Assembly: GCA_963744655.1 (NCBI GenBank)
Contig: CAVUUJ010000002.1
Span: 1,277,864-1,341,863 of the forward strand
Reading direction: 5' to 3'
DNA length: 64,000 nt
Source: an uncultured bacterium
GTDB lineage: Bacteria > Verrucomicrobiota > Kiritimatiellia > PWTM01
Part shown: positions 10,601-61,681 of the stretch, piece after piece
How the letters are laid out: every line of letters starts with the position of its first letter
Numbering within the stretch: position 1 is the stretch's first letter
Translations under genes and position numbers: made by a program
Notes under the pieces: generated by a model
The model's database searches: none
What the model saw: the letters and a program-made list of their open reading frames with translations, nothing else
What the model was told of the DNA's origin: nothing

Positions 10601-10919
10601 CCGGCATGCGCCGGCGCAGGGCCTGCATCGGCCGCTCGCCGGGGCGCAGCGGGCTCTGCATGGCGACGTAGAGGTGCTCCTCGTCCCAGCAGAGGCGGAA
10701 GGTGGCCTGGCGGACACTCACCTGTCCGCGCTTCGCGCGCAGGCCGCGGACGGCGAGCGCGCCGCGCCATTCGTCGGCGCCGACCGCCCCGTCGATGACC
10801 GGCTTCTCGAGGGCATAGGGGAGGGCGAAGACGGGGCGCCGGTACGCGTCCGGCGCCGCCTCCTGCGCGACGGCTCCCGCGGCAATCAGGAAGAGCGGAA
10901 CGAGGGCGATACGCTTCAT
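7601..10919 (-). pseudogene. giant-paralog family member A (CBM9/DOMON-like N-terminus); disrupted by one frameshift and one in-frame TAG
   Basis: Start MKRIALVPLFLIAAGAVAQ (ATG 10919, AGGAG RBS). The reading frame changes near 8520 (..YFGDQWRTSVSDG | SAFDDTLVDFIVHHAYTW..). An in-frame TAG at 8105-8107 sits between ..GPAWGLAV and FLHEYQGRWDP... The homologous sequence continues to the stop at 7601. Confidence 0.75.
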
Positions 10920-25194: not shown

Positions 25195-26268
25195 ATGAAC
25201 GTCGCCGAACGCTACCTGGCTTTCATGAGGTACGAGACGGTGGACCGGCCGCCGCTCGTCCTGCCCGGCGGGATCTTTCCGGTGACCCGGCGGCGCTGGG
25301 AGCGGGAAGGGCTGCCCGCGGGGGTCGACCTCAACGAGTTCTTCGGCGGCGAGCCCATGCCCGTCCGGCCGCTGGCCCTCGACACCCTGCTCCGCCCGCC
25401 CTTCGAGGAAGAGATCCTGGAGGAAACCGGCGAGTTCGTCGTGAAGATCGACCAGCACGGCGTGAAGTGCCGGAACTTCAAGGACGAGACCTCGATGTCC
25501 GAGCATCTCGAGTATCCGGTCAAGGGACCGGAGGACCTGGCCTGGCTGCGCCGGCGTCTCGACCCCGCCGCGCCCGGCCGCATCGCGCCCGACTGGCTTG
25601 AACGGGCGCGGGAGAGCCGGGCGCGCGGGGTGCTGACACAGATCAACGGCGGCATGTACTTCGCCTTCCTCAACGAGCACATGGGCACGGAGGCGGCCCT
25701 CGTGGCCTACTTCGACACCCCCGAACTCGTTCACGAGGTCAACGAGCTGCAGTGCCGCCTCTGCGAGCAGGCCATGAACACGGCGCTGCCCCGCTTCAAG
25801 CCCGACCGCATCGGCTACCACGAGGACATGGCCTACAAGAACGGCAGCATGATCTCGCCGGCCATGTTCCGCGAGTTCATGACGCCCTACTACAAGCGGG
25901 TGACGTCGATCACCTCGCGGCATGGCCTCGACCATCACCTGATGGACAGCGACGGCGATATCCGCGAGCTCATCCCGCTCTGGCTCGAGTGCGGGATCAA
26001 CGCCTTCGCCCCGCTCGAAGTGGCCGCCGGCATGGACGTCGTGGCGCTGCGCGAGGAATACGGCCCGGCGATCAGGATGGAGGGCGGGTTCGACAAGCGC
26101 ATCCTCGCCTCGGACAAGCCCTCCATCCGGCGCGAGTTCGAGCGGCTGGCGCCGGTAATCGACGGCGGCGGCTACCTGCTCAGTTGCGACCACACCGTGC
26201 CGCACAACGTGCCGCTGGAGAACTACGCCTACCTCGTGGAACTGATGAAGGTCCATTTCGGCATGTGA
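25195..26268 (+). CDS. URO-D-superfamily protein, DSDGD subtype
   Basis: ATG 25195 with a GGAGAAAGGA RBS. Motifs YKNGSMISPAMFREFMTPYYKRVTSI, HHLMDSDGDIRELIPLWLECGINAFAPLE and LLSCDHTVPHNV. Confidence 0.8.
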   Translation: MNVAERYLAFMRYETVDRPPLVLPGGIFPVTRRRWEREGLPAGVDLNEFFGGEPMPVRPLALDTLLRPPFEEEILEETGEFVVKIDQHGVKCRNFKDETSMSEHLEYPVKGPEDLAWLRRRLDPAAPGRIAPDWLERARESRARGVLTQINGGMYFAFLNEHMGTEAALVAYFDTPELVHEVNELQCRLCEQAMNTALPRFKPDRIGYHEDMAYKNGSMISPAMFREFMTPYYKRVTSITSRHGLDHHLMDSDGDIRELIPLWLECGINAFAPLEVAAGMDVVALREEYGPAIRMEGGFDKRILASDKPSIRREFERLAPVIDGGGYLLSCDHTVPHNVPLENYAYLVELMKVHFGM

Positions 26269-35843: not shown

Positions 35844-36119
35844 ACGCGTGAACTCAACGGCGGCACTCCGTCCGCTGAAGGAACTTGTTCGAATCTCTTC
35901 TCTCCCGCAAGGCCGCCAAAATCGCCGAGGTTTTCCTGTTCAGGCAGGCCGTTGACCGTGCGTGCGATGCCACGTTTCATCATGTCCTCACCGAAGTTCA
36001 GCAGGTAACCGAGCTTCAAGCCGGTGAGCTTCACATAGGTCAAGAGCCGCTTCTCGTGGGCCTCGGTGATCCGCTCAACGGACTTCAATCCGGCGCTCGA
36101 TTCAGAAAGAAATGACCGG

Positions 36120-36148
36120 TTGACGTTGTAACGTTGTAGCGCTATGCG
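36120..36148 (+). promoter_or_regulatory. candidate TA promoter TTGACG-N17-TATGCG overlapping the tandem 8-mer ACGTTGTA ACGTTGTA (36123-36138; possible antitoxin operator)
   Basis: Read directly. A GGGAGG RBS at 36160-36165 precedes ATG 36172. Confidence 0.4.
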
Positions 36149-36171
36149 GTTGTCGTGAAGGGAGGTAAGAC

Positions 36172-36594
36172 ATGAGCATCCTGACGAAACGCGCAACGGT
36201 CTATCTTGACCCGGTTCTGCACAAAGCGCTTCGCCTGCAGTCCGTCGAGACCTCACGGTCCGTTTCCGAACTGATCAACGACGCCGTTCGGGACGAACTC
36301 GCCGAAGATGCTCGCGACCTCGCCCAGTTTGATGAGCGAGTGAAGGAGACCACCGTTGACTTCGAGGACTTCGTGAAGAGTCTGCAGCGCGATGGCACGA
36401 TATGGAGTCATCGTCCGCAAGTCCGTCGCAAAGGACATGAGGGGCATCCCGAGGAAGGATGCCCGGCGCCTTGTTGCAGCCATCAAGTCCCTTGCGGACG
36501 ATCCTCGCCCGCCAGGTGCCAAGAAGCTCTCCGGTCAGGAGCGGTACCGTCTCAGGCAGGGGAAGTGCCGAATCCTGTACGAAGTCCGGCATGA
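36172..36594 (+). CDS. ribbon-helix-helix (CopG/RelB-like) antitoxin; the ORF is abnormally extended over the toxin gene
   Basis: MSILTKRATVYLDPVLHKALRLQSVETSRSVSELINDAVRDELAEDARDLAQFDERV... The first ~78 aa look like an antitoxin. The remaining ~60 aa are an out-of-frame overlap with the RelE gene. Confidence 0.65.
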   Translation: MSILTKRATVYLDPVLHKALRLQSVETSRSVSELINDAVRDELAEDARDLAQFDERVKETTVDFEDFVKSLQRDGTIWSHRPQVRRKGHEGHPEEGCPAPCCSHQVPCGRSSPARCQEALRSGAVPSQAGEVPNPVRSPA

Positions 36595-36649
36595 CAGGCT
36601 GATCGTCTGCGTCGTCCGAGCCGGAGGCCGCCGCGACGTCTACCGATGA
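36392..36649 (+). CDS. relE: RelE/ParE-family type II toxin
   Basis: 85 aa: MARYGVIVRKSVAKDMRGIPRKDARRLVAAIKSLADDPRPPGAKKLSGQERYRLRQGKCRILYEVRHDRLIVCVVRAGGRRDVYR. This is a canonical RelE/StbE-like pattern. Confidence 0.85.
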   Translation: MARYGVIVRKSVAKDMRGIPRKDARRLVAAIKSLADDPRPPGAKKLSGQERYRLRQGKCRILYEVRHDRLIVCVVRAGGRRDVYR

Positions 36650-36970
36650 GATAATCGAACAGGGCCCATGGACGGCACGGCGTACAGCCGCCCGTCATGG
36701 CCGGCGATCACCTTGCTCTGGACAACCGTATCGGCCCGGAAGCCTTCGACGAAACGCACGCCCCGGCACACCATGGCCACCGGCACTTGGCGTTCCGCGC
36801 TGAACCCTCGCTTCCGGATCTCATCCGGAAGGACGACTTTGTGGACCGTCTCCAGCCGTTCCGGACCAGGTTCGAGATGAACCGCCATAGCAGCGTCCAC
36901 GATTTTCCGGCTCTTTCGCGAATGCTGTGGGTTGCAGCTTGATTCCGGGCGTCTTGTGTCGCCACGGCGG

Positions 36971-47380: not shown

Positions 47381-48907
47381 CTACTCCGCCAGGGGCTTCG
47401 TAGGGCAGGCCGACCCCGGGTCCGCCGGCCGGAGGGGGGCGAGGGGCAGGCGGCGTGCGCCGGGGGGCACGTCGAAGCGCTGGCCGTCGACACGAAGCGT
47501 GAAGGGGGTGTCGGTCTCCACCTCGACGGCGCCGCGGCCGTCGTAGAGGAGGGAGGCGGTGACGCGGCCGAAGCGGAGTCGGCGGACGCCGTGGGGGCCC
47601 CGGTCGCGGCGCAGGCGCCATGTCACGGTGCGCGCCCGGCCGTCGCAGGCGAGGCCGAGGACGTGCTCGACGAGCATGGAGATGGGCCCGAGGGCGGACC
47701 AGCCGCAGAAGTCGGGCCGGACGATCCGGTCGGGGCGCTTGCCCGTGGCGGGGCGGGGTGCGACGGGGGCGTAGGCTTCCCAGATCGTGTGCGGCTCGAC
47801 CGCGCGCCACGCGGCGAGCATGTGGCGCACGAGGCGTTCGGCGGCGTCGGCGGCGAGCCCGGCGAAACCGTTTTCGGCCAGGGCGCGGCAGGCCATGCAG
47901 GCGAGGGGCAGCCAGACGCCGCCGCGCCAGTAGCCGCCGTCGGGGTCGAACGAGGGTTCGTCGCGCGCGACGCTCGGGAAGGGCGCGGGGCCGCCGAAGA
48001 CGGCGGGATCCGCCGCGTGCGCGGCGAGGCGCCGTGCGCGCTCGGGCGGGCAGGCCCCGGCGAGGAGCGGCCAGTAGGCCGCGGGGGTCTTGACCCGGAA
48101 GAAGGCGTGCGGCGCGGCGGCGCGGATGTCGTGGTAGATCCCGTCCCGCTCGTCCCAGTACCGGTCGTTGAGCAGGTCGGCCCGCTCCCGGTGCCGGGCG
48201 CGCCAGGCTTCGGCGCCGGCGGCGTCGCCGAGCGCGCCGGCGATGCGCGCGAGGCGGTCGGCGGCGAGGGCCTGCTGGGCGAGCGCGTCCAGCCAGAGGA
48301 TGTCCGGGTAGCCGTGGCGGGAGTCGTCCGGGCGCGGGCCCGGGGCGGCCCCGCCGCCGCCGCGCGGTGTGTTGTCCATCCCGCTGCAGCAGCCGGCCCA
48401 GTGGTAGCCGAGCAGGACGCGGCGCAGGAAGGTCTCGTTGGGGCTGCAGGGCGGGGGTTCGGGCAGGGGGAGGCGCTCGACGAGGTCGAAGTGCCGCTGG
48501 AGCCAGCGGGCCTCGTAGACGCGGCGCAGCCGGTCGAGGTCGCCGGTGTGCGTGAAGTGCTCCCACTCGACCCACGCGAACAGCGGCGGGTTGTCGAGGT
48601 GGTGGATGCGGAGCCTCGTCGGGGCGCCGTCGTGGAGGGGGCGGTAGAAGTTCTCGAGGCTCTCGACGCCGGGGAAGACGTCCGGGGCGTACTTGCAGAA
48701 CAGCGCCATGAAGCACGTGTCCCAGATCCAGACGACGCCGGGCGTGTGCGCCTCGTCCATGTAGGGCGAGCGGGGCGCCCCGGGCCAGGCGACGACGTGC
48801 TCCCACGCCAGTTCCCACGCCCGGCGGTGCAGCGCGGCGAAGCCGGGCTCGTCCTCGAAGACGACCTCCGGCACGCGCTCCGCCGGGAAGGGCCCCGGCG
48901 GGCTCAA
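47381..48907 (-). CDS. (alpha/alpha)6-barrel glycoside hydrolase, GH63/MGH1/trehalase-like (second copy in the window)
   Basis: Putative TTG start in a TTGA overlap at 48904-48907. Motifs VVWIWDTCFMALF, NPPLFAWVEWEHF, GYHWAGCCSGMDN, GGYWRGGVWLPLACMA and IWEAYAP. The last ~16 codons lie in a dispersed repeat. Confidence 0.7.
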   Translation of the reverse strand: MSPPGPFPAERVPEVVFEDEPGFAALHRRAWELAWEHVVAWPGAPRSPYMDEAHTPGVVWIWDTCFMALFCKYAPDVFPGVESLENFYRPLHDGAPTRLRIHHLDNPPLFAWVEWEHFTHTGDLDRLRRVYEARWLQRHFDLVERLPLPEPPPCSPNETFLRRVLLGYHWAGCCSGMDNTPRGGGGAAPGPRPDDSRHGYPDILWLDALAQQALAADRLARIAGALGDAAGAEAWRARHRERADLLNDRYWDERDGIYHDIRAAAPHAFFRVKTPAAYWPLLAGACPPERARRLAAHAADPAVFGGPAPFPSVARDEPSFDPDGGYWRGGVWLPLACMACRALAENGFAGLAADAAERLVRHMLAAWRAVEPHTIWEAYAPVAPRPATGKRPDRIVRPDFCGWSALGPISMLVEHVLGLACDGRARTVTWRLRRDRGPHGVRRLRFGRVTASLLYDGRGAVEVETDTPFTLRVDGQRFDVPPGARRLPLAPLRPADPGSACPTKPLAE

Positions 48908-51021
48908 GCGCGCTCCACCGCCAGGGCGACGCCCACGCGCGGGTCGCAGGTCACCGTGAGCCGCCCGTCGGGGTCCGGCTCGAGGGCGCCGCCGCCGAGG
49001 AGGTCCTCGAACGCCGCGCGGGGCCGGTCCGCGAAGCGCAGGCGCACGGGGCCGTCGCCCGCGTGGATGACGAACGCGGCGCGCCGGCCGCCGACCGTGC
49101 CGGCCTTGACGTAGACGTAGTCCCCGGCCTCGGCCTCGACGGGCGCGGCGACGCCCGCGCGCCGGGCGACGGCGGCGGCGAAGCGCTCGAACGCGGGGGC
49201 GTACTCCTTCCACGCCGGGGCCCCGACGAGGTCCGCCTCGGCGTAGGGGTCGGCGGCGTAGCAGGCGAGCTGGACGACGCGGCCCTCGCCGACGGGCGTG
49301 TCCGCGATCCGGTCGCCGTCCGGCGCGCCCGCGCGGTCGGCGAGCGGCTCGAGCCACTGGGTGGCGGGCAGCCGGTAGGCGGCACCGTCGAAGGACACGT
49401 CCACGTGCTCGTCCTCGAGCGGGCGGCGGCCGACGGCCACGCGCCCGGTCAGGGCGGCGGTGAAGCGCTCGGCGGGGTCGCGGAAGAAGCCGTGCCGGTC
49501 GTAGGCGCCCGCGCCCGGGTCGCAGAGCAGGGTGCCGCCCGCGCGGACGAAGGCCTCCAGCCGTTCGGCGAGCGGAGCCTCGACGACGGCGGTGCGGGGG
49601 AGGACGAGGAGCTTGAGGCCCTCGATCGCCCCGGGCCGGTGTTCCTCGACGAGGCGGAAGGGGATGTGGCGCTTGAGCAGCGCGCGGCCCCAGCCCTGGA
49701 GCGCGATCTGCGCCCGGCCGCCGCGGCCCTCGCAGGCCCAGTGGAGGTAGTAGCTTTCCGGTGAGAAGAGCACACCCGCCTCGGCGGGCAGGGGGCGGAA
49801 GGAGGCCACCGTTTCGCCGTGGCGCTCGAGCAGCTCGCGCGTGCGGCGCATGGACGCCGCGCGGTCGGCGAAGCAGCCGTCGTGCCCGCTGAAGCCGAAG
49901 CCGCCGGCCTCGGTGGTGAAGACCTCGTCGCGCCAGCACCAGAACAGCACCGTGTCCGCCCCGTTGGCCAGCCCGGTCCAGAGCCAGTTCTGCTGGGGTC
50001 GCCCGGGGACGGGCGGCAGGGGCCGCAGGCCGCAGGAGGCCTGGCCGCCCTGCACCTCGCTCAGCCAGACGCGCTTGCCGCGCGCGGCGGCGGGCAGCGC
50101 CTCGATGCGCGCGGCGAAGTCGGGCGGGTCGGTCAGGCCCCAGAACGGGAAGCTCGAGCAGCCGACGCCGTCGACCCGCTCGGCGTAGTCCCAGTCGTTG
50201 CCGCGGTCGAGCGGGGGCGCTTCGCGGCCGCCGCCCTTGAGGAAGGAGGGCGAGTCGCCGTGCACCGTGGCGGGCCGCGTGCCGTCGAGCCGCCGGAAGA
50301 TCTCGTGGCGGCGCGCGGCGTGCTCCGCGCAGCGCCGGGTGATGAAGCGCGCGAAGGCCATCGCCTCGGTGAACGGGCGGCCGGTGGCGAGCGCCGGACG
50401 GACGTCCTCCCAGCTCGCGTAGCGGCGGCGCCAGGCGCGGTTGAGGCCGTCGAGGCTGCCGTAGTCCGCCTCGAGCCAGGCCCGGAAGGCGGCCAGCGTG
50501 TGCGGGCAGCAGCAGACGAGCTCGCCGGCCTGCACGTTCCAGCGCAGCTCGTTCCAGATGTCCCAGCCCCGCAGGTGGGATGCGCCCTTGTAGCGCTCGA
50601 CGGTGCGCTCGATGAAGGCGGCCATGCGGGCCCAGACGTCCGGGTGGTCGAAGCAGCCGCCCGGGGTGACGCCGAAGTGGCACTCGTTGCGGTTGCCGGA
50701 GGGGACCGGCCGGCCGCGGACGTCGACCAGCTCGCTGCCGGGCACGACGCGGTGGATCCAGTGCGGCTGCAGCTCGGGGATGACGCTGAGGACGACGCCG
50801 AGCCCGTTCTCCGCGGCCAGCCCGACGAGCCGGTCGTAGTCCCCGTACTCGAACCGGCCGGGTTCGGCCTCGACCCAGCTCCACAGCACCCAGAGCTGGA
50901 CGCTGTTGAAGCCGCTCTCGCGGATGGCCCGGAAGTCGGCCTCCCAGTGGCGGTCCTCGGGGAAGGGGGGGCGGTAGTACTGGACGCCCACGGTGAAGGG
51001 GTTCGCGTCGCGTTCGCTCAC
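48904..51021 (-). CDS. GH42-like beta-galactosidase
   Basis: GTG start in a GTGA overlap at 51018-51021. Motifs FTVGVQYYRPPFPEDRHWEADFRAIRESGFNSVQLWVLWSWVEAEPGRFEY, WDIWNELRW and LSEVQGGQAS. Confidence 0.75.
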   Translation of the reverse strand: MSERDANPFTVGVQYYRPPFPEDRHWEADFRAIRESGFNSVQLWVLWSWVEAEPGRFEYGDYDRLVGLAAENGLGVVLSVIPELQPHWIHRVVPGSELVDVRGRPVPSGNRNECHFGVTPGGCFDHPDVWARMAAFIERTVERYKGASHLRGWDIWNELRWNVQAGELVCCCPHTLAAFRAWLEADYGSLDGLNRAWRRRYASWEDVRPALATGRPFTEAMAFARFITRRCAEHAARRHEIFRRLDGTRPATVHGDSPSFLKGGGREAPPLDRGNDWDYAERVDGVGCSSFPFWGLTDPPDFAARIEALPAAARGKRVWLSEVQGGQASCGLRPLPPVPGRPQQNWLWTGLANGADTVLFWCWRDEVFTTEAGGFGFSGHDGCFADRAASMRRTRELLERHGETVASFRPLPAEAGVLFSPESYYLHWACEGRGGRAQIALQGWGRALLKRHIPFRLVEEHRPGAIEGLKLLVLPRTAVVEAPLAERLEAFVRAGGTLLCDPGAGAYDRHGFFRDPAERFTAALTGRVAVGRRPLEDEHVDVSFDGAAYRLPATQWLEPLADRAGAPDGDRIADTPVGEGRVVQLACYAADPYAEADLVGAPAWKEYAPAFERFAAAVARRAGVAAPVEAEAGDYVYVKAGTVGGRRAAFVIHAGDGPVRLRFADRPRAAFEDLLGGGALEPDPDGRLTVTCDPRVGVALAVERA

Positions 51022-54000
51022 GGCCGGTCCTCCGGTGCGGCGTCCGCGGCGGCGACGGGCCGCACGCGGAACGCCTTCAGGTCGTGGCTGCGCAGCGTGA
51101 AGCACAGCCCTTCGGGGCGCACATCCTGCCGCGCCCCGGTCTCGATGTCCACCGTCTCGCAGGGCCCTTGCAGCCCGAGCGCGCCGAGGTCGATCCGCAC
51201 CCGGGCCTCGCGGGACTCGCCGGCGAAGTTGGTGAAGACGCACAGCGCCTCCTCGCCCGGCACGCTGTAGACGATGCCGGGCAGGTCGGGGTCGTCGGCC
51301 GCGACGGGCTGGGGCCGTTCCTCCCAGTAGCGGTAGACGACGACGCCGGGGCGCAGGGCGATGGCGGTGACCGGCTTGCGGAAGAGGTCGTAGACCGGGT
51401 TGGGCGGCGGGATGGCCTGGTGCCACACATAGTGGTCGATGGTGATTTCGTGGACGAGGCACACGCCCATCCAGGTGCGGCTCGTCCAGGGGTCGCCCAC
51501 CAGCGGGCCCTGCTCGTGCAGGAAGAGCGGGATCGCCCCGAGGTGGTCGCCCGTGCTCATGGCGAGCAGGTAGGCGCGGCTGTAGCGGGTGTGGAAGTCG
51601 CCCTCGGAGTGCTTCCACTCGCCGTCGTAGCGGACGGTGTAGAAGGCGTTGATCGGCAGGATCTCCAGCGTGGAGGTGTGGACCATGTTCCAGGGGTAGC
51701 GGCCCTGCTCGTGCAGGAGCCGGAACTGGCGGCGGCCCAGTTCGCGCAGTCCCCACAGTCCGTTCGAGGGGGCGGTCGTGCCGTCGTCGCGGCGGTACGC
51801 CCCGGTGAAGAAGCGGTTGAAGGAGGGCGCGAAGTAGTTGTTGTCGACGTAAATCCCGGTGTTGCCCGCGTGCTCGAAGCTCTTGACGTACCACCAGGCG
51901 GCGAAGTCCAGGTAGGAGGGCGTGGGCACGATGCGGCGCTCGAGCGGTTCGTCGGTGTCGCGGTCGTCGCAGAACGCCCGCACGCCCCACTCGTCCATGA
52001 ACGTCTGGTACTCCTCGATCACGGGCGAGGAGCTGCGGTTGAAGTAGAAGACGAGGGACAGGCCCTCGCGCTGCTGCAGCGTGGTGCGGGCGCATTGCTC
52101 GAGTTCGCGCATCCGGCCCTCGTCCTCCGTGAACTCGGGGTGCGGGGCGAGGTGCCGGCGGTAGGCGGCGAAGCCCTCGCGGAACTCTTCCTCCGCGAAG
52201 GCGCGCCGGTTGGCCCGCCGCACCATGTGCCACAGGGAGAGGTCGCGGTTCGCGGGGTAGACGGAGCCGCAGCAGCCGAGGGCGAACCAGTGGAAGTCGC
52301 AGCCGACGAGGCCCACGCGCCCGGTCCAGTAGCGCGTGCGCCAGTCCGGCGGGCGCGGCTTCACGGGCGAGGCCTGCAGGCCGAAGGTCATCCGGCGCCG
52401 GCCGGCGAAGGTGAGCGGGCGGTTCACGAGGTGGACGCGCAGGACGAGCCGGTCCCCCTCGCGGGAGAGCGAGAGGTTCGGCCGGCCGGGGTCCCATCCC
52501 CAGCCGCGGTCGTTCTCCGCGAACCAGGCGAGCCCGCGGTTGGGGTTGCCGACCCAGCAGTAGGTGCAGAAGTTTCGCGGCAGGCCCCAGGTCTCGAGCC
52601 GCGAGGCGTCCCAGACGACGCCCTCGCCCGCGGGGACCTCGTCGGTGAAGACGGCGAAGCGGCCCGCCGTCGATGAGCGCGTGCAGGAGCGTGGCGTCCG
52701 CCGAGGGCAGGGGCAGCTCGAGGTCGAGCGACTCGACGGTGCGCGACGCGGCGCCGGCGTCGAGCTCGAGGTCGACCCGCAGCATCCCGTCCTCTTCCAG
52801 GGTCGCGTCGATCCGGGCCGCCAGCGGGCCGAGCCCGAAGCGGGAGCGGATCCGCGCGCGGTCGGCCTCGACGGGGCCGATGCGCAGCCGCGCGTCGCGC
52901 GGCGCGGCCTCTTCGCCGTCGAACCGCGCGCGCAGGCGGGGCGGTGCGGCGAGCAGGGGGCGGGTGGCGATGCGCTCGACGCTCGTCGGCCTCGATCTGT
53001 TCCGGCAGGCCGAGGGCGCCGAACCGGTACGCGCGCAGGACGACCTCGAGCGTGCGGCCGCGGCGGCGGATCGGCTCGAACGGCGGGTACACGGCGCGGC
53101 GCGCGCCGAGCGTGTTGCCCTCCCACTCGAAGCGGCGGCGCTCGAACGCGCGGCGCACGGGCTGGGGGTCGAGCCCCCTGCCGCGGACGCGGCAGACGAT
53201 CTCGTAGCCGCCCTCCAGGGGCGGCAGGCGCACGGTGCGCTCGCGGAAGCCCCCGGCGTCGAACCCCTCGCGCGGCAGGCGGAAGCCCGCCGCTTTCCGC
53301 CCGTCCGCCCGCCGGAGCACCTCGAAGGCCAGTGCCCGGAAGGCGGGGCGGCCGAGCAGGTCGCCCGCGAAGGCCCGCACGTGGAGCCGGTCGAGGCCGG
53401 GGTAGTACGCGAAGAGGAAGCGCGGCGTGTCGGCGAGGGTGCGCGCGTCCCAGCGCGGCCCCTCGCGGGGCGTCCAGCGGAGGCAGCGCGCGTAGTCGAA
53501 CGGCCCGTCCTCGCGGCCCGCGCCGCGGACCAGCGCGAAGAGGGAGAAGGCGCCGCTGACGGGGTCGGCCGGCACGCGCAGCCGCCGTTCCGCCGTGCCG
53601 CCGGGCGGGACGGCGACGCGCTCGTCGAGCCGGACCTCCGACTGCTTGTCGCGGGCGAGGTAGAGCTGCACATGCGCTTCGGCGGGCCGGTCGAACGGGT
53701 TGTGGAGGCTCAGCACGGTGTCGAGGCGGCGGCCGGGCAGGGCGGCCTCGTGCCGCACCTGCACCGCGAGTGCGTCGCGGTCGTGGAAGCTCACGCGCAC
53801 GCTGCGGCGCGGGTTGTAGGCGCCCCGGCTGCCGAGGTGGCTCCAGGCCCAGGGCTGCTTCCAGCTCCGGCACAGGTTCACGGCCCAGACGCCGTCGCCG
53901 GCCCGCCGCCCGGGGGCCACGGCCTCGACCGGGACCTCGACCTCGACGTGCCAGGCGCCGTCGTGGAAGCCCTGCGCCCAGCGGTAGCCGCCCTGCCAGC

Positions 54001-54454
54001 CGTAGTAGCGGTTGACGTCCGCGCGGCCGCGCGGGTGGGCGAGGTAGCCCGCGCGCCCGAGGGCGTTGAGCAGGAACTGGTAGGTGGCGCCCTCTTCCGC
54101 GTCGGGGTCGGGGTCGATCCAGACCTCGACCGCGTCGTCGCGTCCGACGAAGACGCTGTCGGCGTCCTGCTCCGCCACGAGCGCGGCGGGCGGGGGCGGC
54201 AGCTCGGAGACGACGGCGAAGTGGAAGTGCGTGGGCGTGGCGGCGATCCACGCCTCGGCGCGGCGCCGGGACAGGGACTCGGCCTCGCCGTCGATGCCCG
54301 CGGGGAAGCCGTCGAGCCGCGCGGCCACGGCCCACTCCCCCGGCTCGACCCGCCCGTCGAGCACGGGCGGGTCGCGGCGCAGCGGCACGCGGTAGCGGTC
54401 CGCGAAGGCGTAGGGCGCCAGGGACGCTGGCACGAAGGGGAGGGGATTGTCCAC
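51018..54454 (-). pseudogene. giant-paralog family member C; two frameshifts
   Basis: Start VDNPLPFVPASLAPYAF (GTG 54454). The frame changes near 52985 (..GLPEQIEADE | VERIATRPLLAAP..) and near 52672 (..LLHALIDGG | RFAVFTDEVPAGEG..). The C-terminal part is homologous to the other members through to the stop at 51018. Confidence 0.75.
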
Positions 54455-54471
54455 CGGCGTCCCTTCCCGCT

Positions 54472-57400
54472 TCAGCGGACCCGCAGGAAGCGCGCCTGGT
54501 GCGGGGCCATCGGCAGGAGCACCGCGCCGTCCTCCGGCGCGAAGTCCTCCTCGGCGGCCACGTCGCGGACCCCGGCGGCAGGCCGGCCGAGCAGGGCGTC
54601 GCCCAGCGCGAGGCGCACGCGCAGCGGCGTCTCCGTCGGGTTGACGACCGCGAGGGCGGCGAGGCCGCTGCCCGCGTGGGCGAAGCCGCCGGCGAGCACG
54701 CGGGCGTCCGAGACCTCCACGAGCCCGCCGGGGTTCCAGTAGCGCACGTGGCGGAGGGCGGGGTCGGCGAGGGGCAGTTCCCGCACGAGCGCGCGGGCGC
54801 GGCCGCCCGGCACCGACAGCCAGTCCCCGGGCGGGCTGCCGACGGGCATGTCGTGCAGCAGGCCGTAGGCGTAGGCCAGGAGGCAGGCTTGGTCCTCCGC
54901 CTCGTTGAGCCGGTCCGCTTCCGCGGTGGGCATGTGCGAGGCCACCATGCCCATGCCGCCCATCGAGACCGTGTAGCCGGCGAAGCGGTCGGGGGTCAGG
55001 CCCTGGTCGATCCAGTCGTCGCCCGCGCGGCGGTGGTACATCGGGCCCTCGACGAACCAGGTGGGGCCGTAGCTGTTCTCGTGGTTGTTGCTCTGCAGCA
55101 GGGCGGGGGGCTTGCCGGAAAGCCACAGGGCGGTGGCGTAGCGGCGGGCGCGCTCCCGGTAGCGGAGCATGGGAGTGAAGGATCGCAGCGCGCCGTCGTC
55201 GCGCCGGTAGGCGCCGCCGGTGAGGTCGCTCCGGAAGACGCCGGCGAACGCGCGCGGATGGGGCTCGTAGCAGTCGAAGAAGCAACCGTTGGCCCCCGTG
55301 GCGTCGCTGATGCGCATCATGTACCAGAGCCAGGCGTCGACGAAGCTGTCGTTCATGACGGAGTAGAACACCGTGAGCTGTTCGGGCCGAATCCAGTAGG
55401 CCGTCCCGCCGTAGTTCGTCCAGCGCGCGAAGTCGGAATCCGGGCGGCGGGTCTCCAGGGTGCGCGAGGAATGCGTCCAGCCGCTGCCGAAGGTGGGGAA
55501 CTCCCGCATCGCGCAGCTCGCGGCGAAGGTGCACCCGTAGAGGGTCAGCGGGTAGCCTTGCTGGAAGCGCTCGAGGCGGACGCGGTAGCGCGAGTTGTGC
55601 CCCGGGGGGGCGTCTTCGGGCCTGAAGTAGTGCGGCGCGTAGCCGTCGCTCTCCCGCAGGAAACGGCGCAGGCCCTCGAGGCCCTCGGCGGTGTCGAGCT
55701 GGAAGCCGTTGACCCCGTCGCCGTAGTAGCGGTAGCCGGCGGTGTCGTGCGAGCGCAGGCCCTGCCAGAAGGCCTGCCGGTAGCCGGCGGCTTTCGGGCG
55801 CGTGGGCGTGGCCGCCAGGGCGAAGTCGATCGTGCGCGGGCGGTCGAGCCGCGTCGGCCGCGCGAACAGGCGCAGGCGCAGGGCCAGTTCGCCGTTCTCG
55901 CGCACGAGCAGGACCTGGTCCTCGCCGTCGGGCACGTTCCAGCCGCGGTCGCTCTCGTTGATCCAGAAGAGGCCGTGGTCGAAGTCGCCCGCGAAGATCA
56001 GCGGCACGAAGTGGCCCGTGAAGGCGGGGTGGGGCTGCAGGTCCGACCCGCGGGCGAGGACGCCCTCGCCCGCCGGGATGGCCCCGAGGCCCTCGATCTC
56101 CGTGAGCCGGCCGAACCGGTAGATCGAGGCGGAGGGGTTGACGGGCACGGTGAGGGTGAGCGCGTCGACGGTGACGGGTTCCGGCGCGTCGAGCGTGAGC
56201 CGCACGCGGTAGTAGCCGTCGTAGTCCAGCCGCCCCTCGACCGCGGCGCGCACGGGGCCGAGCCGAGCGGCGGCGCGGACGTCGGCGGCGAAGCCGTCGG
56301 TCGGCTCCAGTTCGAAGTCGCGCCCGGCGACGGGGCAGGCGTTCGTGGCCAGCTCGTAGCGATCGAACCCCGCGGGGAAGCGGGTCCCGGGCATGCGCTT
56401 GAGGGTGAGGGGGCCTTCGCCGACGGCCCCGACGCGCCGGCCGTCCACGACGGCTTCCAGCCGCACGGGGCCGCCGAGCACGTCCTCGCCCTGCGAGACG
56501 AGGGCGGCGGGCAGGCCGGCGGGCCCGAACCGGTAGGTCCGGCCCCACACGCGCAGCGAGGCGTCGTCGGGGCCGGGCTCCACCGGCGTCCAGGGCGGCA
56601 GGACGACGGCGTCCCGCCCGAGGGTGTTGCGCTCCCACGGGAAGTGTTCCCGGACGAACGGGAGGACGGCCGCGCCGGAGGGCCCGTCCTCCGCGGCCAC
56701 CGCGAGGTCCAGCCGGTACGTGCCGTCGGGCAGGGGATCGGGGAGTTGCAGAAGCACGCGGCCCTCGCTGTTGCTCACGGCGCCCGCGCCTTCGGCGAGC
56801 ACGCGGCCGGCGGCGTCGAGCGCCCGGGCGGTGAGCCGGTCGGCCCGGGTGATCCGCCGGGCTTTCTCGAGGTTCTCGCCGGTGTAGAGCTGCAGGTTGA
56901 GGCGGGTGCTCACGCGCGCCTCGACGCGTTCCGTGTACGGGTCGTAGACGTAGTCGAACGGGACGCTGATCTCCGGTTCCCGGTAGTGCAGCTCGCGCCA
57001 GCGGGCGTGGGCCGCGGCGACGTCGGCCCGGCCGGGCGTGTAGGGCAGTTCGTGGCGGAAGAGCGGGACCTCGCGCCCGGGCAGGCCGGCGGTCAGTTCG
57101 ACGCTCAGCGTGTTCGGGACGCCCGCGGCCGGCTCGACGCCGGACGTTGCCCGCCACTCGAGGCCCCGCTTCGCCTGGCCGGAGCCGTTCCAGGTCCGGT
57201 CCCACGTCGTGCGGCCGCCGGCGGTGTTGGCGAAGCGCGCGGTGAAGGAGGCCGGGGCGTCGGCCTCGCCGGTCAGCAGCAGGCCTCTGAGGTCCGCGTG
57301 GAGCGAGCCCGAGGGCTGGAGCAGGCGCGGGTAGCTGCCGTTCAGCTGGAAGGTTGCGGGCGCCTCCGGGTCGAAGAGGACGGCCGGCATCCGGTCCCAC

Positions 57401-58095
57401 CCGTCCGCCCCGGCGCCGCCCCAGCTCAGGTAGTGCGGATCGGTCGACCACGCGAGGTGCAGCTTCGCCTCGCGCCCGTCGAGCGGGGCCCCGTCGAGCA
57501 GGTCCAGGGGGATGCGCCACTCCACCTGCCACCACAGGCCGGGCACGTGCGCCACGCCGACGTAGTTCCCGACGGCGATGCGGCCGGGGTCGACGGGCAG
57601 GTTCTGCCCGGGGAGCGCCTGCATGCGGTAGGCCCACAGGGCGCCGTTGGGGTTGAGGGCCAGGCGCAGGTAGGGGACGCCGGGCGTGCCGACGCGGGGG
57701 TCGAGCGCCACCTGGACGACGAGGTGGTCGTCGTCGAAGACGGCCGGGTCGTTGGGTTCCGTCGCGCGGGCGACGAAGTGTTCGCCCGCGGGCTCGAGCT
57801 GGACCATGGTGGCCAGGTACAGCGCCGCGTCGTCGTAGGTGATCCACCAGCTCGCGTCGCGGCCGACGGCGGGCGCGCCGGGCAGCCGCGTGTCGCGCAG
57901 GCCGCAGAAGGCGGAGGCGCGGCTCCAGCCGAAGCCCTTGAACGGGCCGCCGGTGCAGTGGGGGGGCACGCCGCGGACGGGCGCGACCCGGACCCAGGGC
58001 GCATCGGGCCCCCCGGGTTCCGGGGCGGCGTGCGCGAACGGGGCGAGGAGAAGGGCGAGGGCCGCCGGGAGGAGTCGTCGCAGGTGCATGGTCAT
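54472..58095 (-). CDS. giant-paralog family member D (secreted)
   Basis: 1,207-aa intact ORF. Signal peptide MTMHLRRLLPAALALLLAPFAHA. Motifs HFPWERNTLG..VLPPWTPV, VWGRTYRFGPAGLPAALVSQG, IDFALAATPTRP and GANGCFFDCYEP. Confidence 0.8.
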   Translation of the reverse strand: MTMHLRRLLPAALALLLAPFAHAAPEPGGPDAPWVRVAPVRGVPPHCTGGPFKGFGWSRASAFCGLRDTRLPGAPAVGRDASWWITYDDAALYLATMVQLEPAGEHFVARATEPNDPAVFDDDHLVVQVALDPRVGTPGVPYLRLALNPNGALWAYRMQALPGQNLPVDPGRIAVGNYVGVAHVPGLWWQVEWRIPLDLLDGAPLDGREAKLHLAWSTDPHYLSWGGAGADGWDRMPAVLFDPEAPATFQLNGSYPRLLQPSGSLHADLRGLLLTGEADAPASFTARFANTAGGRTTWDRTWNGSGQAKRGLEWRATSGVEPAAGVPNTLSVELTAGLPGREVPLFRHELPYTPGRADVAAAHARWRELHYREPEISVPFDYVYDPYTERVEARVSTRLNLQLYTGENLEKARRITRADRLTARALDAAGRVLAEGAGAVSNSEGRVLLQLPDPLPDGTYRLDLAVAAEDGPSGAAVLPFVREHFPWERNTLGRDAVVLPPWTPVEPGPDDASLRVWGRTYRFGPAGLPAALVSQGEDVLGGPVRLEAVVDGRRVGAVGEGPLTLKRMPGTRFPAGFDRYELATNACPVAGRDFELEPTDGFAADVRAAARLGPVRAAVEGRLDYDGYYRVRLTLDAPEPVTVDALTLTVPVNPSASIYRFGRLTEIEGLGAIPAGEGVLARGSDLQPHPAFTGHFVPLIFAGDFDHGLFWINESDRGWNVPDGEDQVLLVRENGELALRLRLFARPTRLDRPRTIDFALAATPTRPKAAGYRQAFWQGLRSHDTAGYRYYGDGVNGFQLDTAEGLEGLRRFLRESDGYAPHYFRPEDAPPGHNSRYRVRLERFQQGYPLTLYGCTFAASCAMREFPTFGSGWTHSSRTLETRRPDSDFARWTNYGGTAYWIRPEQLTVFYSVMNDSFVDAWLWYMMRISDATGANGCFFDCYEPHPRAFAGVFRSDLTGGAYRRDDGALRSFTPMLRYRERARRYATALWLSGKPPALLQSNNHENSYGPTWFVEGPMYHRRAGDDWIDQGLTPDRFAGYTVSMGGMGMVASHMPTAEADRLNEAEDQACLLAYAYGLLHDMPVGSPPGDWLSVPGGRARALVRELPLADPALRHVRYWNPGGLVEVSDARVLAGGFAHAGSGLAALAVVNPTETPLRVRLALGDALLGRPAAGVRDVAAEEDFAPEDGAVLLPMAPHQARFLRVR

Positions 58096-58108
58096 CCTTT
58101 CTGCCGGG

Positions 58109-61100
58109 TCACTCGGCTTCGAACGCGATGAGACGGACGTCGTGCCAGGGCACGTCCACGGGGCCGGCGAGGCGCAGGCCGCCGCCCTCCGCCGGCTCGA
58201 GCGGGACGTCCTTCCAGGTTTCCAGGTCGTAGGCGCGCAGGGGGCGGTCCGCGGCGGCGGCGCCGAGGAGGGCGGCCGGGACGACGACCGTGCCCGCGGC
58301 GTCGAGGTCGCGGCCCTCCGCGGTGTTCACGATCACGGCGACGGCCGTCCGCCGGCCGTCGTGCCGGTAGAGCGACACGGCCAAGGCCGGGTCCGGGGGG
58401 CGGACGGCGTCGCCGGTCCGCCAGTAGCCGCGGAAGAGGCAGGCCCGCGGGTTCTCGTAGTCCACGGCGAAGACCAGCCTGCGCAGCGCGTCCGGCAGGA
58501 ACTCGCCGTCGCCCTCCGCCCCGCCGCGCACGTCGTGCAGCAGGCAGACGGCGGCGACGCTGCGGCGCACCTTGCGGTCCAGCTCCGGCGTCGTGCCGCG
58601 GTAGTGCCGCAGCGAGGGCACGGGCACGAGCATGGTGCTGCGCGTGCGTGTCATGGCGCGCCACTCGGCCAGCGACATCTGCTGCAGCGCCGTGCGGTCC
58701 GGGCCGTCGGCGTAGTAGTCCCCCTCGATCATCCAGAAGTACTGCGTCCAGGCGTAGTCGGTGTGGGCGTGCTGGACGTACTGCGGGGGCCGGGCCAGCC
58801 GCCAGCCGAGCACGTTGAGCCGCTTCGTCAGTTCGCGGCGCCGGGGCTGGTTCCAGACCTCGAGGACCGCGTCCGCGTCCGGGTCGTACTCGCGCACGGT
58901 CCACAGCTGGCTGTCGTCCCACCACGTCCCGTTCACGCCCGCGTCGCGCAGGAGGCGGCGGTGGTTCCAGACGTAGTGGTCGACCAGGCTGCGGGTCCAG
59001 TTCACGCTCGCCGCGCTGACCTGCCGGTCGGCGGTCCACTGCCGGGTGCCGCCGTAGTTCCACCAGCCGAGGTACTCGACCCCGTTGCGCGGGGCGGTCC
59101 AGGCCTGGTCGCCCATCCACTCGCCGCCGAAGGTGTCGGATTCCTCCATGCCGAGGCCGGTCATGACGGTCGAGCCGTACAGGATCACGCGGCCGCCCCC
59201 GCGCGCGGCGGCGTGGCGGTCGACGTTGTGGCCGGGCGCGTAGCGCGCCTCGCTCCGGCCCGACTGGCCGCGGGGACCGTAGAGGAGGAAGCGGCGCAAC
59301 GCGTCGTAGTCCTCGTCCGTGTACAGGTCGTAGCCGTTCACCGAGGCGCCGTAGTAGCGCCAGCCCGACGTGTCCTGGTAGCGGCGCGGGCCGCCCGCGC
59401 GGTAGTCGCGGTCGTTGGGCTTCACGGGCAGGAACTGGAAGGCGAAGTCGACGGGGGGGCGGTCGCGCATGGCCGTGCGCCCGGCGACCAGGCGCACGCG
59501 CAGCCGGACCGTGCCGTCCGGCAGCCGTTCGACGCGCACCGCGGGGTCGTCGCCGGACGTGACCCAGCCCCGGTCGCTCCACGCGTGGAACTGCAGGGCG
59601 CGGTCTCCGTTGCCGACGAGCACGTTCGGCACGAAGCTGCGCCAGTCCTTGCCCGTCGGGGAGGCGCTGCGCCCGAGCGGGAGCAGGTCGGTGGACCGGA
59701 AGTGCACCCCCGCTTCCCGGGGGATGCCGCCGAGGAAGTTGCCGTAGCGCGCGCCGCCCATCCGCTGGACGTACAGCGTGTCCGCCGGGCTGTCCGGCGT
59801 GTCGCGCAGGTCCGCGACGAGGTCCAGGCGCTCGACCTCGGCGCCGCCCTCGACGCGCAGCCGCGCCTGGTACCAGCCGTCGTAGTCCACGAAGCCTTCC
59901 AGCGAAGCGGCCAGCGGGCCGAGCCGGGAGGCGGCGGTGAAGGCGACGCGGTGGTCCGCGGCCTGCGTGAAGACCGGACCTTCGCCTTCGGAGACGACGA
60001 CGGCCCCGTCGACGACCGCCTCCAGGCGCATGGGCGCCGCCAGCAGCGGCGCCGCGGCGCCGGCCGTGCCGGTGGGCGGGTCGAGCAGGGCCTGCCCGAC
60101 GAGCCCGTCGGCGCCGAGCGTGAGCACGCGGCGGAGCCGCGTGTCCGCCAGGCCGCCCTGGCCGTCGAGCGTGAGGCGGCGGGCGGCCGGGTCGGCCGCG
60201 ATCGGGAGGTAGGGCGGGATGACCTCGTCGTCGAGGCCGAGCGTGTTGTGCTCCCAGGGATAGTGCTTGCGGCGGAAGGGGACGACCTTCTCGTCGAGCG
60301 GGCCGCCCGCGTCGTCGAGCAGGCGCACGACGGCCTCGTAGCCGCCGTCCTCCAGGTCCGGCAGGTCGAGGAGCAGTCGCTCCCCGGTCCGGTCCGCGAT
60401 CGCCCCCGCTCCCCGCGCGAGGACCTCGCCGCCGGCGGTCCGCACCTCGCCGGCGAAGCGGCGCGCCGCCTCCACGCCCGGCGGGAGGCCGAAGAAGTCG
60501 AGGTCGACCGTCGCCTCCAGCTTGTTCGCGTACGGCAGGTAGGCCGCGAGGGCCTTCCAGTCGCCCTTGGGCCGGCGTTCCACCCAGGGCCGGATGCGCG
60601 CCGCCACGTAGGCCTCGTCCAGCTTCACGAACGGTTGACGGTGCCGGTAGAGCAGGCGGGGTCCGCCGTCGCGCTGTTCGACGACGCGCAGTTCGACGTG
60701 GTTGCGCTCGCCGTAGCGGGCGAGGTCGACCGCCGCGACCGGCACCTCGGCCTGCCAGAGGAGTTCGGCCGTCGCGCCGGCGTCCGGGTCGGTCGTCCGG
60801 GTCTCCTCGTACACCGCCCGGCCGGAGGGGTCCTCGACGCGGAGCGTCGCCCCGATGCGGCGCGGCGCGCCGCCCGCGGCGACGCCGACGCGCGCGTCGA
60901 GCCGGCCGGCCATGATTTCGCCGAGCCGGTCGAAGGCCACCGCCGGGGCGTCGGAGCGGAAGGTGACGCGCGCGAAGCGCGTCCAGGAGTTCCACGACTG
61001 GGGGACCCACGCGGCGTAGTAGATGCCCGTCGGCTCGTCGGCGCGCACGAGCTGGATCATGAGCGTCCGGCCCTCGAGCGACGCGAGCCCGAGCTGCCGG

Positions 61101-61681
61101 ACGGGGATGGCCATCTCCATCTCCCAGGCCCGGTCCGTGACGTGCGAGCGCACGTCGCCGCCGAAGGACCAGCGGTCCTCCGTGCCGGGCGTGCCGTTGA
61201 AGTGGTGGGCGTCGGACACGACGTCCTTCGCGTTGGTCATGATCTTGTAGAAGCCGCGCGGCGGGGCCGTGGCCTCTTCGGGAGGGCCCGTGCAGATCTG
61301 GATCTCGGTGTGGTCGTCCCAGAGGATGTGGTAGGCGTCGTCGAAGTCCTTGACCCGGGTCACGGGCCAGGTGCCCTCGGGGTGGGGCGAGTGCATGGCG
61401 AGGTAGAGGCGCGCGCCGTCGTAGCCGATGCGCCAGGTCACCTGCTGGAGTTCGGGCACGAGCGTGTAGGGGCCGACGCCCGAGCCGACGGCGGCCATGC
61501 CGGTGAAGGCGGCGGCGCCGCCCCACTCGTCCTCCCCGATGCGCCCGTCGATCACGGGCGCGCGGTCCAGGGCCGGCGCCACGAGTTCGGGGTGGTCGTC
61601 GGCCGCGTGCTCCCGGGCTTGCCCCGCCGGAGGAACCGCCGCCAGCGCCAGGCCCGCCAGGACGAATGCCGTGCGCGTCAT
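58109..61681 (-). CDS. giant-paralog family member E (secreted, CBM9/DOMON-like N-terminus)
   Basis: Start MTRTAFVLAGLALAAVPPAGQA (ATG 61681, GGAGGAGA RBS). Motifs APVIDGRIGEDEWGGAAAF, AWEMEMAIPVRQL, HYPWEHNTLG..VIPPYLP, VDFAFQFLPVKP and GVNGTWWDDSQL. Confidence 0.8.
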   Translation of the reverse strand: MTRTAFVLAGLALAAVPPAGQAREHAADDHPELVAPALDRAPVIDGRIGEDEWGGAAAFTGMAAVGSGVGPYTLVPELQQVTWRIGYDGARLYLAMHSPHPEGTWPVTRVKDFDDAYHILWDDHTEIQICTGPPEEATAPPRGFYKIMTNAKDVVSDAHHFNGTPGTEDRWSFGGDVRSHVTDRAWEMEMAIPVRQLGLASLEGRTLMIQLVRADEPTGIYYAAWVPQSWNSWTRFARVTFRSDAPAVAFDRLGEIMAGRLDARVGVAAGGAPRRIGATLRVEDPSGRAVYEETRTTDPDAGATAELLWQAEVPVAAVDLARYGERNHVELRVVEQRDGGPRLLYRHRQPFVKLDEAYVAARIRPWVERRPKGDWKALAAYLPYANKLEATVDLDFFGLPPGVEAARRFAGEVRTAGGEVLARGAGAIADRTGERLLLDLPDLEDGGYEAVVRLLDDAGGPLDEKVVPFRRKHYPWEHNTLGLDDEVIPPYLPIAADPAARRLTLDGQGGLADTRLRRVLTLGADGLVGQALLDPPTGTAGAAAPLLAAPMRLEAVVDGAVVVSEGEGPVFTQAADHRVAFTAASRLGPLAASLEGFVDYDGWYQARLRVEGGAEVERLDLVADLRDTPDSPADTLYVQRMGGARYGNFLGGIPREAGVHFRSTDLLPLGRSASPTGKDWRSFVPNVLVGNGDRALQFHAWSDRGWVTSGDDPAVRVERLPDGTVRLRVRLVAGRTAMRDRPPVDFAFQFLPVKPNDRDYRAGGPRRYQDTSGWRYYGASVNGYDLYTDEDYDALRRFLLYGPRGQSGRSEARYAPGHNVDRHAAARGGGRVILYGSTVMTGLGMEESDTFGGEWMGDQAWTAPRNGVEYLGWWNYGGTRQWTADRQVSAASVNWTRSLVDHYVWNHRRLLRDAGVNGTWWDDSQLWTVREYDPDADAVLEVWNQPRRRELTKRLNVLGWRLARPPQYVQHAHTDYAWTQYFWMIEGDYYADGPDRTALQQMSLAEWRAMTRTRSTMLVPVPSLRHYRGTTPELDRKVRRSVAAVCLLHDVRGGAEGDGEFLPDALRRLVFAVDYENPRACLFRGYWRTGDAVRPPDPALAVSLYRHDGRRTAVAVIVNTAEGRDLDAAGTVVVPAALLGAAAADRPLRAYDLETWKDVPLEPAEGGGLRLAGPVDVPWHDVRLIAFEAE

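Follow-up and report, generated by a model that had tools for sequence, protein, structure and literature searches.

A stretch of 64,000 nucleotides from an uncultured bacterium of the Kiritimatiellia (contig CAVUUJ010000002.1, positions 1,277,864 to 1,341,863), referred to here as the window and numbered from its first letter, carries five copies (A to E) of a gene family encoding very large proteins. We place these proteins in the Pfam family PF19543 (DUF6067, now 'GH123_N'; InterPro IPR045711), and conclude that they are probably retaining glycosidases that are secreted, from a family in which no member has been characterised. The five copies had been noticed in an earlier reading of the bare sequence (the original prediction), which suggested an undescribed family of glycan-active enzymes. 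To this the present analysis adds, with predicted structures as part of its basis, that the label of glycoside hydrolase (GH) family 123 does not fit these proteins, that their barrel would be of the retaining type with an Asp on strand 4 at the level of fold, and that a specific Asp/Glu pair in it is invariant or nearly so.

Five homologous loci, three of them intact

The G+C content of the window is 73%, and long spurious open reading frames (ORFs) are consequently plentiful; because of this, the true reading frames were picked out by the G+C content of codon positions. When the translations of B, D and E were used as tblastn queries, exactly five homologous places were found in the window, bearing out the five-member family of the original prediction together with its coordinates:

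Member A: 7601..10919, minus strand; disrupted; conceptual product of ~1,107 amino acids (aa); signal peptide
Member B: 21629..25141, plus strand; intact, 1,170 aa; signal peptide; LamG-like N-terminal module
Member C: 51018..54454, minus strand; disrupted by two frameshifts; conceptual product of ~1,143 aa
Member D: 54472..58095, minus strand; intact, 1,207 aa; signal peptide
Member E: 58109..61681, minus strand; intact, 1,190 aa; signal peptide

All ten pairs among the five translations gave significant blastp alignments (25-36% identity; E-values spanning 1e-72 to 1e-8), the weakest being that of B with E (E-value 4e-8). D and E are 29% identical across their full length (E-value ~1e-70 by blastp/tblastn), and pairwise blastp aligned B with C at 30% identity (1e-56) and A with D at 35% (1e-36). 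C, D and E do form the tandem that had been described, lying head to tail on the minus strand and separated by 13 and 17 nucleotides (nt). Signal peptides were seen in A, B, D and E, and none was seen in C from its proposed GTG start. The four collinear motifs put forward as common to the family were all found, with one departure: A, and only A, differs at the first of them, where it reads FTWWETPHG...IDPWTP. What did not hold was the presentation of A and C as ordinary members, since neither span (3,319 nt and 3,437 nt) is divisible by three and neither is an ORF. The best explanation of the five loci is that they are ancient paralogues, three of them intact (B, D and E) and two inactivated (A and C).

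At least two more paralogues lie on the 2.16-Mb source contig outside the window, one 57% identical to B (P0012) and the other 46% identical to E (P0048), and the genome holds at least seven copies of the family. In a collection of 5.8 billion proteins, B and E occur as exact sequences (P0005 and P0033). D (54472-58095) has no exact copy there, its best match being 53% identical, and a 1,210-aa ORF is open opposite it on the plus strand (54499..58131); the source annotation may have a different call for the D gene, or none.

The proteins belong to a large family already catalogued as DUF6067

The PF19543 model has 969 positions and a gathering threshold of 22 bits. Two of the window proteins score above this threshold, namely the repaired translation of A (42.2 bits; the repair is described below) and B (38.3 bits), and three fall below it (E at 20.3, D at 16.8 and the N-terminal part of C at 15.2 bits). 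We place C, D and E in the family because they are homologous to A and B and because homologues at 35-56% identity carry PF19543. This was the case for the homologues of E in that range, and for all homologues of B at 41-62% identity. PF19543 was matched by 22 of the 22 family members scanned, and one family member bears the NCBI name 'DUF6067 family protein'. The window proteins align only to ~150 of the 969 positions of the model (319-479, and ~305-479 at the widest) and not to most of it. Judged from their sequences, they are divergent branches, of which the Pfam model gives poor coverage.

Other resources had little to say about these proteins. NCBIfam gave zero matches for B, D and E, and no meaningful match was found among PDB sequences, either in single-sequence searches with B and D or with a profile of the family. 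A match of the C-terminal region to a characterised GH or polysaccharide lyase family, which the original prediction had named as the result that would make these proteins ordinary, was not found by sequence in Pfam, NCBIfam or PDB searches.

The family is large. An exhaustive profile search returned 15,983, 7,253 and 3,132 cluster representatives at E-values of no more than 1e-3, 1e-10 and 1e-30, respectively; word-indexed searches found 4 relatives with D, 28 with B and 23 with the profile. A scan of species-representative genomes gave 123 relatives, mostly in Planctomycetota, Verrucomicrobiota, Lentisphaerota/Victivallales, Kiritimatiellia, Armatimonadota and Omnitrophota. Many genomes contain several copies, and in 24 of 81 loci at least two members lie within 8 kb of each other, usually on the same strand. 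Multi-copy, tandem sets of deeply divergent paralogues are thus normal for the family, and the window is a typical example.

The earlier guess that the family might correspond to an uncharacterised DUF was therefore correct, as both the Pfam matches and the NCBI name attest. By the same token, the family is not undescribed, being catalogued as PF19543, widespread, and represented by thousands of clusters even at the strictest cut-off. What is new is the set of members, which extends a known but uncharacterised family; the kind of protein is not new. The only paper retrieved by a literature search on DUF6067, GH123_N, PF19543 and IPR045711 was a database paper listing the Pfam entry, besides a comment on the protein DSSM_1 (Sumida et al. 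2024, PMC11087588) that is considered below. Searches for literature linking GH123 to Planctomycetes and related phyla, or on Naumoff's GHL families, found nothing usable.

A predicted (beta/alpha)8 barrel behind a series of beta-sandwiches

An AlphaFold2 model of full-length E, built on a 55-sequence alignment, reached a mean predicted local distance difference test score (pLDDT) of 88.4 and a predicted template modelling score (pTM) of 0.85. After the signal peptide, it divides into the following predicted domains (residues of E):

32-240: beta-sandwich
247-351: immunoglobulin (Ig)-like domain
376-471: Ig-like domain, whose PDLPDGxY motif lines up with the place where the GH123-N-like sandwich of DSSM_1 ends
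472-751: large beta-sandwich, opening with the FPWE...PPxTP motif
~760-1090: (beta/alpha)8 barrel (window ~58412-59404)
1100-1190: C-terminal beta-sandwich

The barrel and C-terminal domain of D (residues 762-1207) were also modelled with AlphaFold, with a pLDDT of 84.7. The comparison with known structures that the original prediction had proposed was made with this model, and Foldseek matched it to GH13 enzymes (the trehalose synthase TreS, TVA II, neopullulanase and GlgE), to GH27 enzymes (the beta-L-arabinopyranosidase 4nx0 and the rice alpha-galactosidase 1uas), to GH66 dextranases (8iub and 5axg) and to a GH36 enzyme (2xn0). These matches had a probability of 1.0 and E-values of ~1e-9, with template modelling (TM) scores of 0.40-0.45 at ~10% identity. 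As far as the model can tell, the likeness is one of fold class, and does not amount to membership in GH13, GH27, GH66 or GH36. The same search with the whole of E returned LacZ/GH2-type structures only, at a TM score of 0.16; we set this result aside as uninformative, a reflection of generic domain order.

Sequence comparisons gave few signals in the same direction. A few family members have weak Pfam matches to the Melibiase_C, Malt_amylase_C and Amylosucrase_C domains. No Pfam match was found to the catalytic-domain models of GH13, GH27/31/36 or GH66, only the weak matches to these C-terminal beta-sandwiches.

The N-terminal modules are more variable. B matches Laminin_G_3 (PF13385) just below threshold (26.0 bits against 27.6; E-value 1.2e-5), and several B-type homologues carry this domain. 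For A, the carbohydrate-binding module (CBM) model CBM9_1 (PF06452) gave 14.4 bits against a threshold of 23.4 (E-value 0.037), and PF06452 is present in two distant family members. The N-termini of D and E had no Pfam match, and a profile of the module built from 16 sequences found nothing in the PDB. The original prediction had listed a CBM9-like module for A, C and E, a list that omitted D, which shares the module of E. On this evidence A, C, D and E would share an N-terminal module that differs from that of B and is possibly CBM9-like.

An invariant Asp and a nearly invariant Glu mark a candidate active site

Residue conservation was read from an alignment of the barrel region of 197 family members. 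The Asp in what had been described as an acidic strand is conserved in all 197, and a Glu lying ~65-80 residues beyond it in 195. The family does, then, possess conserved residues of catalytic type, the lack of which, according to the original prediction, would have suggested a binding or structural role. Their positions in the window are:

B, plus strand: Asp828 at 24110-24112 and Glu908 at 24350-24352, candidate catalytic residues
D, minus strand: Asp941 at 55273-55275 and Glu1016 at 55048-55050, candidate catalytic residues
E, minus strand: Asp922 at 58916-58918 and Glu986 at 58724-58726, candidate catalytic residues
A, minus strand: conserved Asp in GFYLDN at 8429-8446 and Glu in IALDGEHH at 8201-8224
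C, minus strand: conserved Asp in GIYVDNN at 51837-51857 and Glu in VRYDGEWK at 51612-51635

In the same alignment, and in the numbering of E, Arg954 and Trp855 are each conserved in 99% and Tyr835 in 98%, with further conservation at Tyr1086-Trp1087, Ser898, Asp901 and Glu854 (93%). Sandwich residues ahead of the barrel are conserved too, namely E477, R518, D601, R719 and K754 of E. The residue that follows the invariant Asp is Asn in 158 sequences, Asp in 16, Cys in 11 and His in 4.

In the models of both E and D, a barrel strand ends on the Asp, and a later strand is followed within 1-2 residues by the Glu. Counting along the secondary-structure strings, we place the Asp on strand 4 and the Glu on strand 6, or on strand 5 if a three-residue strand is excluded. 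A nucleophilic Asp on strand 4 with an acid/base residue on strand 5 or 6 is the layout of the retaining families GH13, GH27/31/36 and GH66. The predicted structures resemble GH13 (clan GH-H), GH27/31/36 (clan GH-D) and GH66 in several respects: a (beta/alpha)8 barrel followed by a C-terminal Greek-key beta-sandwich, an invariant Asp closing strand 4 with a Glu one or two strands further on, and beta-sandwich domains at the N-terminus. They differ from all of these in having no sequence similarity detectable by Pfam, NCBIfam, PDB profile or hhalign searches and a far larger N-terminal architecture, and from GH13 also in lacking a third invariant carboxylate. The Y-F-D-N strand of the family resembles K-Y-D-N-C, which we take to be the nucleophile strand of GH27, and we treat this as a lead only.

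Two of the five copies are broken

In A, the coding frame, as followed by codon-position G+C content, changes at ~8513-8525, and an in-frame TAG stands at 8105-8107. C shows two changes of frame, one at ~52973-52985 and the other at ~52656-52668. The former site (52973-52985) is a 7-nt near-tandem duplication, CGAGCG-T-CGAGCG, and deletion of TCGAGCG brings back ...ADERIATRPLL... in frame; this looks like a mutation by replication slippage rather than a base-calling error. Once repaired, both translations align over their full length to the hidden Markov model (HMM) of the family, with E-values of 6e-175 (A) and 3e-182 (C), and both keep the key Asp and Glu. Since they align from end to end and retain these residues, the damage, if real, must be recent.

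The same property would be expected if A and C were in reality intact and their frame breaks had arisen during sequencing or assembly. We nevertheless think this improbable. A scan of codon-position G+C content across the ~35 genes of the window flagged A and C, and no other gene, as having a coding signal that ends far from the stop of its ORF. All four lesions (4/4) fall in A and C, which make up 6.8 kb of the 64-kb window, for which we estimate a probability of ~1e-4 if errors were evenly spread, and two of them, a TAG substitution and a 7-nt duplication, are not the homopolymer slips typical of such errors. For these reasons we strongly favour the view that A and C are real pseudogenes.

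The genes lie among carbohydrate-degrading enzymes

The neighbours of the family in the window include the following genes, with Pfam E-values in brackets:

47381..48907, minus strand: GH63-like/MGH1-like hydrolase, downstream of C-D-E (MGH1-like_GH, 1e-30)
48904..50991, minus strand: GH42 beta-galactosidase, downstream of C-D-E (Glyco_hydro_42, 8e-40)
4752..7604, minus strand: fusion of URO-D and sulfatase in a single 950-aa ORF (Sulfatase, 3e-46; URO-D, 1e-11)
25195..26268, plus strand: URO-D-like gene, directly downstream of B (URO-D, 2e-13)
12901-14034: URO-D-like gene, two genes upstream of A

The GH42, GH63-like and URO-D-like neighbours had all been named in the original prediction, and Pfam confirmed them. 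The GH63-like gene, the GH42 gene and C-D-E run on the same strand, with ends that overlap by 4 nt or lie tens of nt apart. Directly downstream of A, the start of the URO-D-sulfatase fusion overlaps the stop of A, and upstream of A a DUF5597/GH42-like gene accompanies the URO-D-like gene. Elsewhere the window encodes four more sulfatase domains, a GH130, a GH116, a SASA-type esterase and LamG/PKD proteins, together with regulators of the GntR, IclR and AraC types.

In 80 related loci, the recurring neighbours were DUF1559 proteins (10), sulfatases (9), GntR/sugar-binding regulators (8), GH31/GH36-like (Melibiase_C-like) proteins (6), beta-helix proteins (6), GH35/42 (4) and GH141-like proteins (4). 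A related locus, on a 7.7-Mb contig of JGI 3300001596 (L001/L002 4313-13489), has two members of 1,209 and 1,162 aa flanking a GH36 (Melibiase) gene, with GH35, GntR/sugar-binding regulators and DUF1559 proteins nearby. The context as a whole supports a role in glycan breakdown.

A proposed glycosidase and its rivals

Taken together, these results suggest the following mechanism. Each protein would be exported and built of many domains: behind the signal peptide come a variable N-terminal beta-sandwich, a pair of Ig-like domains, a large beta-sandwich, the barrel and a C-terminal Greek-key sandwich. The barrel would hold the active site of a glycoside hydrolase, predicted to work by a retaining double-displacement mechanism in which the nucleophile is the invariant Asp that closes strand 4 at its C-terminal end and the acid/base is the Glu just after strand 6 (or 5). 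The proteins would likely function in the periplasm or extracellularly, alongside the neighbouring sulfatases, beta-galactosidases and GH63-like, GH116 and GH130 enzymes; their targets would be complex glycans, possibly carrying sulfate and galactose. The paralogues probably differ in specificity, because they are only 25-36% identical to one another and other genomes hold closer relatives (52-62%) of each of B, D and E. The suggestion of a glycan-active enzyme in the original prediction is to this extent strengthened, by the (beta/alpha)8 barrel and its fold likeness to GH13, GH27, GH66 and GH36, by the invariant Asp/Glu, by the signal peptides and by the setting in carbohydrate-utilisation loci, although it remains unproven.

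Several observations weigh against this proposal. Searches of the literature and the PDB found no assay or solved structure for any member. The structural matches are at the level of fold only (TM ~0.4, ~10% identity), and the numbering of the strands is our own count from secondary-structure strings. When a 197-sequence profile of the barrel was compared by hhalign with a GH36 protein and a GH31-like alignment from related loci, nothing rose above the negative controls (the GH42, GH116, GH63-like, URO-D and sulfatase proteins of the window), all probabilities being below 1%. The conserved acidic positions are not all kept in each paralogue, since D has a Gly where E has Glu854, a position occupied by Glu in 93% of the family. 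Finally, no constant genomic partner was found: a sulfatase is present in ~9 of 81 loci and a URO-D-like gene in 3-4 of 81. Since no neighbour is constant, the context does not fix the substrate.

If the proteins are not glycosidases, then, in decreasing order of likelihood, they would be non-hydrolytic enzymes on the same fold, non-catalytic proteins, or enzymes of the GH123 type. The first of these, in which the barrel is catalytic as a transglycosylase, a glycan phosphorylase, an isomerase of the TreS/GlgE type, or a lyase or esterase, seems to us unlikely. The transferases and isomerases TreS and GlgE are indeed among the top Foldseek matches, and retaining folds readily evolve transglycosylation. 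The signal peptides, however, place the proteins outside the cytoplasm, where we would not expect sugar-phosphate donors; the neighbouring genes encode degradative enzymes, and no signature of cofactor or phosphate binding was found in Pfam and NCBIfam scans of B, D and E.

It is less likely still that the barrel is degenerate and that the proteins serve as glycan-binding, scaffold or surface proteins. Roughly two thirds of each protein consists of beta-sandwich, CBM-like or Ig-like domains, and the pseudogenes indicate that two of the five copies are dispensable, both of which would suit a non-catalytic role. Yet it is in the barrel that the conservation of the family is strongest, with the Asp at 100%, the Glu, Arg and Trp at 99% and the Tyr at 98% among 197 sequences of low pairwise identity, which is what an active site, and not a degenerate domain, typically shows.

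The GH123 label and DSSM_1

The remaining alternative is suggested by the name of PF19543 itself, 'Glycoside hydrolase 123, N-terminal domain': all members match this model, and the proteins might accordingly be GH123-type beta-N-acetylgalactosaminidases, whose substrate-assisted catalysis relies on an Asp-Glu pair on strand 4. GH123 is defined by a consecutive catalytic Asp-Glu 'DE' motif (PMC11087588). There is some resemblance to GH123 enzymes (NgaP, CpNga123 and BvGH123; DUF4091 groups 1-4), which likewise have a small beta-sandwich before a (beta/alpha)8 barrel and share the Pfam label; the window proteins differ in being about twice as long.

The origin of the label became apparent when DSSM_1, DSSM_2 and NgaDssm (Sumida et al. 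2024, PMC11087588) were scanned over their first ~400 residues each. The first 399 residues of DSSM_1 scored 409 bits against PF19543, over model positions 2-337 of 969. DSSM_2 and NgaDssm, which are genuinely GH123-like, also match PF19543, with a match limited to positions 191-313, and positions ~191-313 of the model correspond to the small N-terminal beta-sandwich of GH123. These comparisons indicate that PF19543 is really a full-length model of a DSSM_1-like family, of which only a short stretch resembles GH123. The title of the Pfam entry likely makes annotation pipelines label DUF6067 proteins as GH123.

DSSM_1 has been described as having five domains, among them a GH123-N-like sandwich and a barrel of the (beta/alpha)8 type similar to that of GH66 (3WNM), and as lacking both DUF4091 and the DE motif (PMC11087588). 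It was judged structurally distinct from GH123 and not taken as a candidate, and was left 'not assigned' and 'not tested' (Sumida et al. 2024, PMC11087588). Its overall plan is that of the E model, whereas the N-terminal modules of the window proteins are unlike the part of DSSM_1 that corresponds to the first 318 model positions. Aligned to the family HMM, the first ~400 residues of DSSM_1 fell in register without reaching significance, and the link between DSSM_1 and the family rests on Pfam.

A GH123 activity is highly improbable, given that DSSM_2 and NgaDssm match PF19543 at positions 191-313 and the window proteins at 319-479; that GH123_cat (PF13320, formerly DUF4091) was found in 0 of 22 members at an E-value of no more than 0.01, and not in B, D or E at up to 1, when the positive controls DSSM_2 and NgaDssm do match it; that the residue after the invariant Asp is not the Glu of the DE motif; that the family profile did not find the GH123 chains of the PDB at E-values up to 10; that GH123 structures were absent from the best 50 Foldseek matches, for the whole protein or for the barrel; and that DSSM_1 itself is considered distinct. 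In particular, the substrate-assisted 'DE' arrangement of GH123 and GH20 is excluded because the Asp is followed by Asn in 80% of the 197 sequences, and not by Glu. The GH123 name almost certainly implies an activity that these proteins lack.

Other features of the window

Three URO-D-like genes (uroporphyrinogen decarboxylase/methyltransferase fold) occur within this one glycan locus. The window also encodes three PEP-CTERM-anchored proteins, one of them with LamG, and one DUF1559/N-terminal-methylation protein (20135-20902, 29119-30006, 44523-45362 and 62805-63986). Planctomycetota, Verrucomicrobiota and Lentisphaerota commonly combine PEP-CTERM with DUF1559 proteins, in keeping with the distribution of the family.

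Four ORFs have a good coding signal and no Pfam match (2990-4696, 568 aa; 27737-29002, 421 aa; 30086-31636, 516 aa; and 61750-62523, 257 aa). The 257-aa ORF sits just upstream of E and shares its strand; for two of the four ORFs, weak relatives were seen in 2 of 81 related loci. A further ORF of 758 aa (37430-39706, minus strand) has a strong coding signal and only sub-threshold Fer4 (4Fe-4S) matches, at residues ~657-675, and adjoins an IclR regulator.

An islet of lower G+C content at 35777-36900 contains a gene for a ParE-type toxin (36392..36649, plus strand; PF05016, 32.7 bits), with an ORF resembling a ribbon-helix-helix (RHH) antitoxin upstream, starting at 36172 (weak PF20605 match). 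This pair is flanked by a PDDEXK_3 (GxxExxY) gene that is split in two on the opposite strand, the N-terminal half at 36640..36900 and the C-terminal half within 35777..36256, and it appears that a toxin-antitoxin cassette has been inserted into the PDDEXK_3 gene. Scans of the window for tRNA genes and Rfam families found nothing.

Implications for the family

Thousands of proteins of this family, of ~1,100 aa, are found in environmental bacteria known for the degradation of complex glycans, often in several copies per genome and often beside sulfatases and galactosidases, and annotation pipelines leave them hypothetical or give them the GH123 name. We tentatively propose, at slightly short of an even chance, that DUF6067/PF19543 is a large glycoside hydrolase family without a characterised member, mislabelled as a GH123 accessory domain, in which the strand-4 Asp would be the nucleophile and the Glu the acid/base, and which would have diversified into many specificities for complex, possibly sulfated glycans in Planctomycetota, Verrucomicrobiota and their relatives. 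The two decaying copies in the window show in addition that paralogues of the family undergo loss as well as gain.

B, D and E offer three intact, mutually divergent test cases with clear targets for mutagenesis, situated beside likely partner enzymes, and the compact JGI 3300001596 locus could serve as a second test system. If the Asp/Glu barrel is a working glycosidase, a single characterised member would found a new CAZy family. A misleading GH123 annotation would then be corrected, and thousands of proteins in carbohydrate loci would gain a function.

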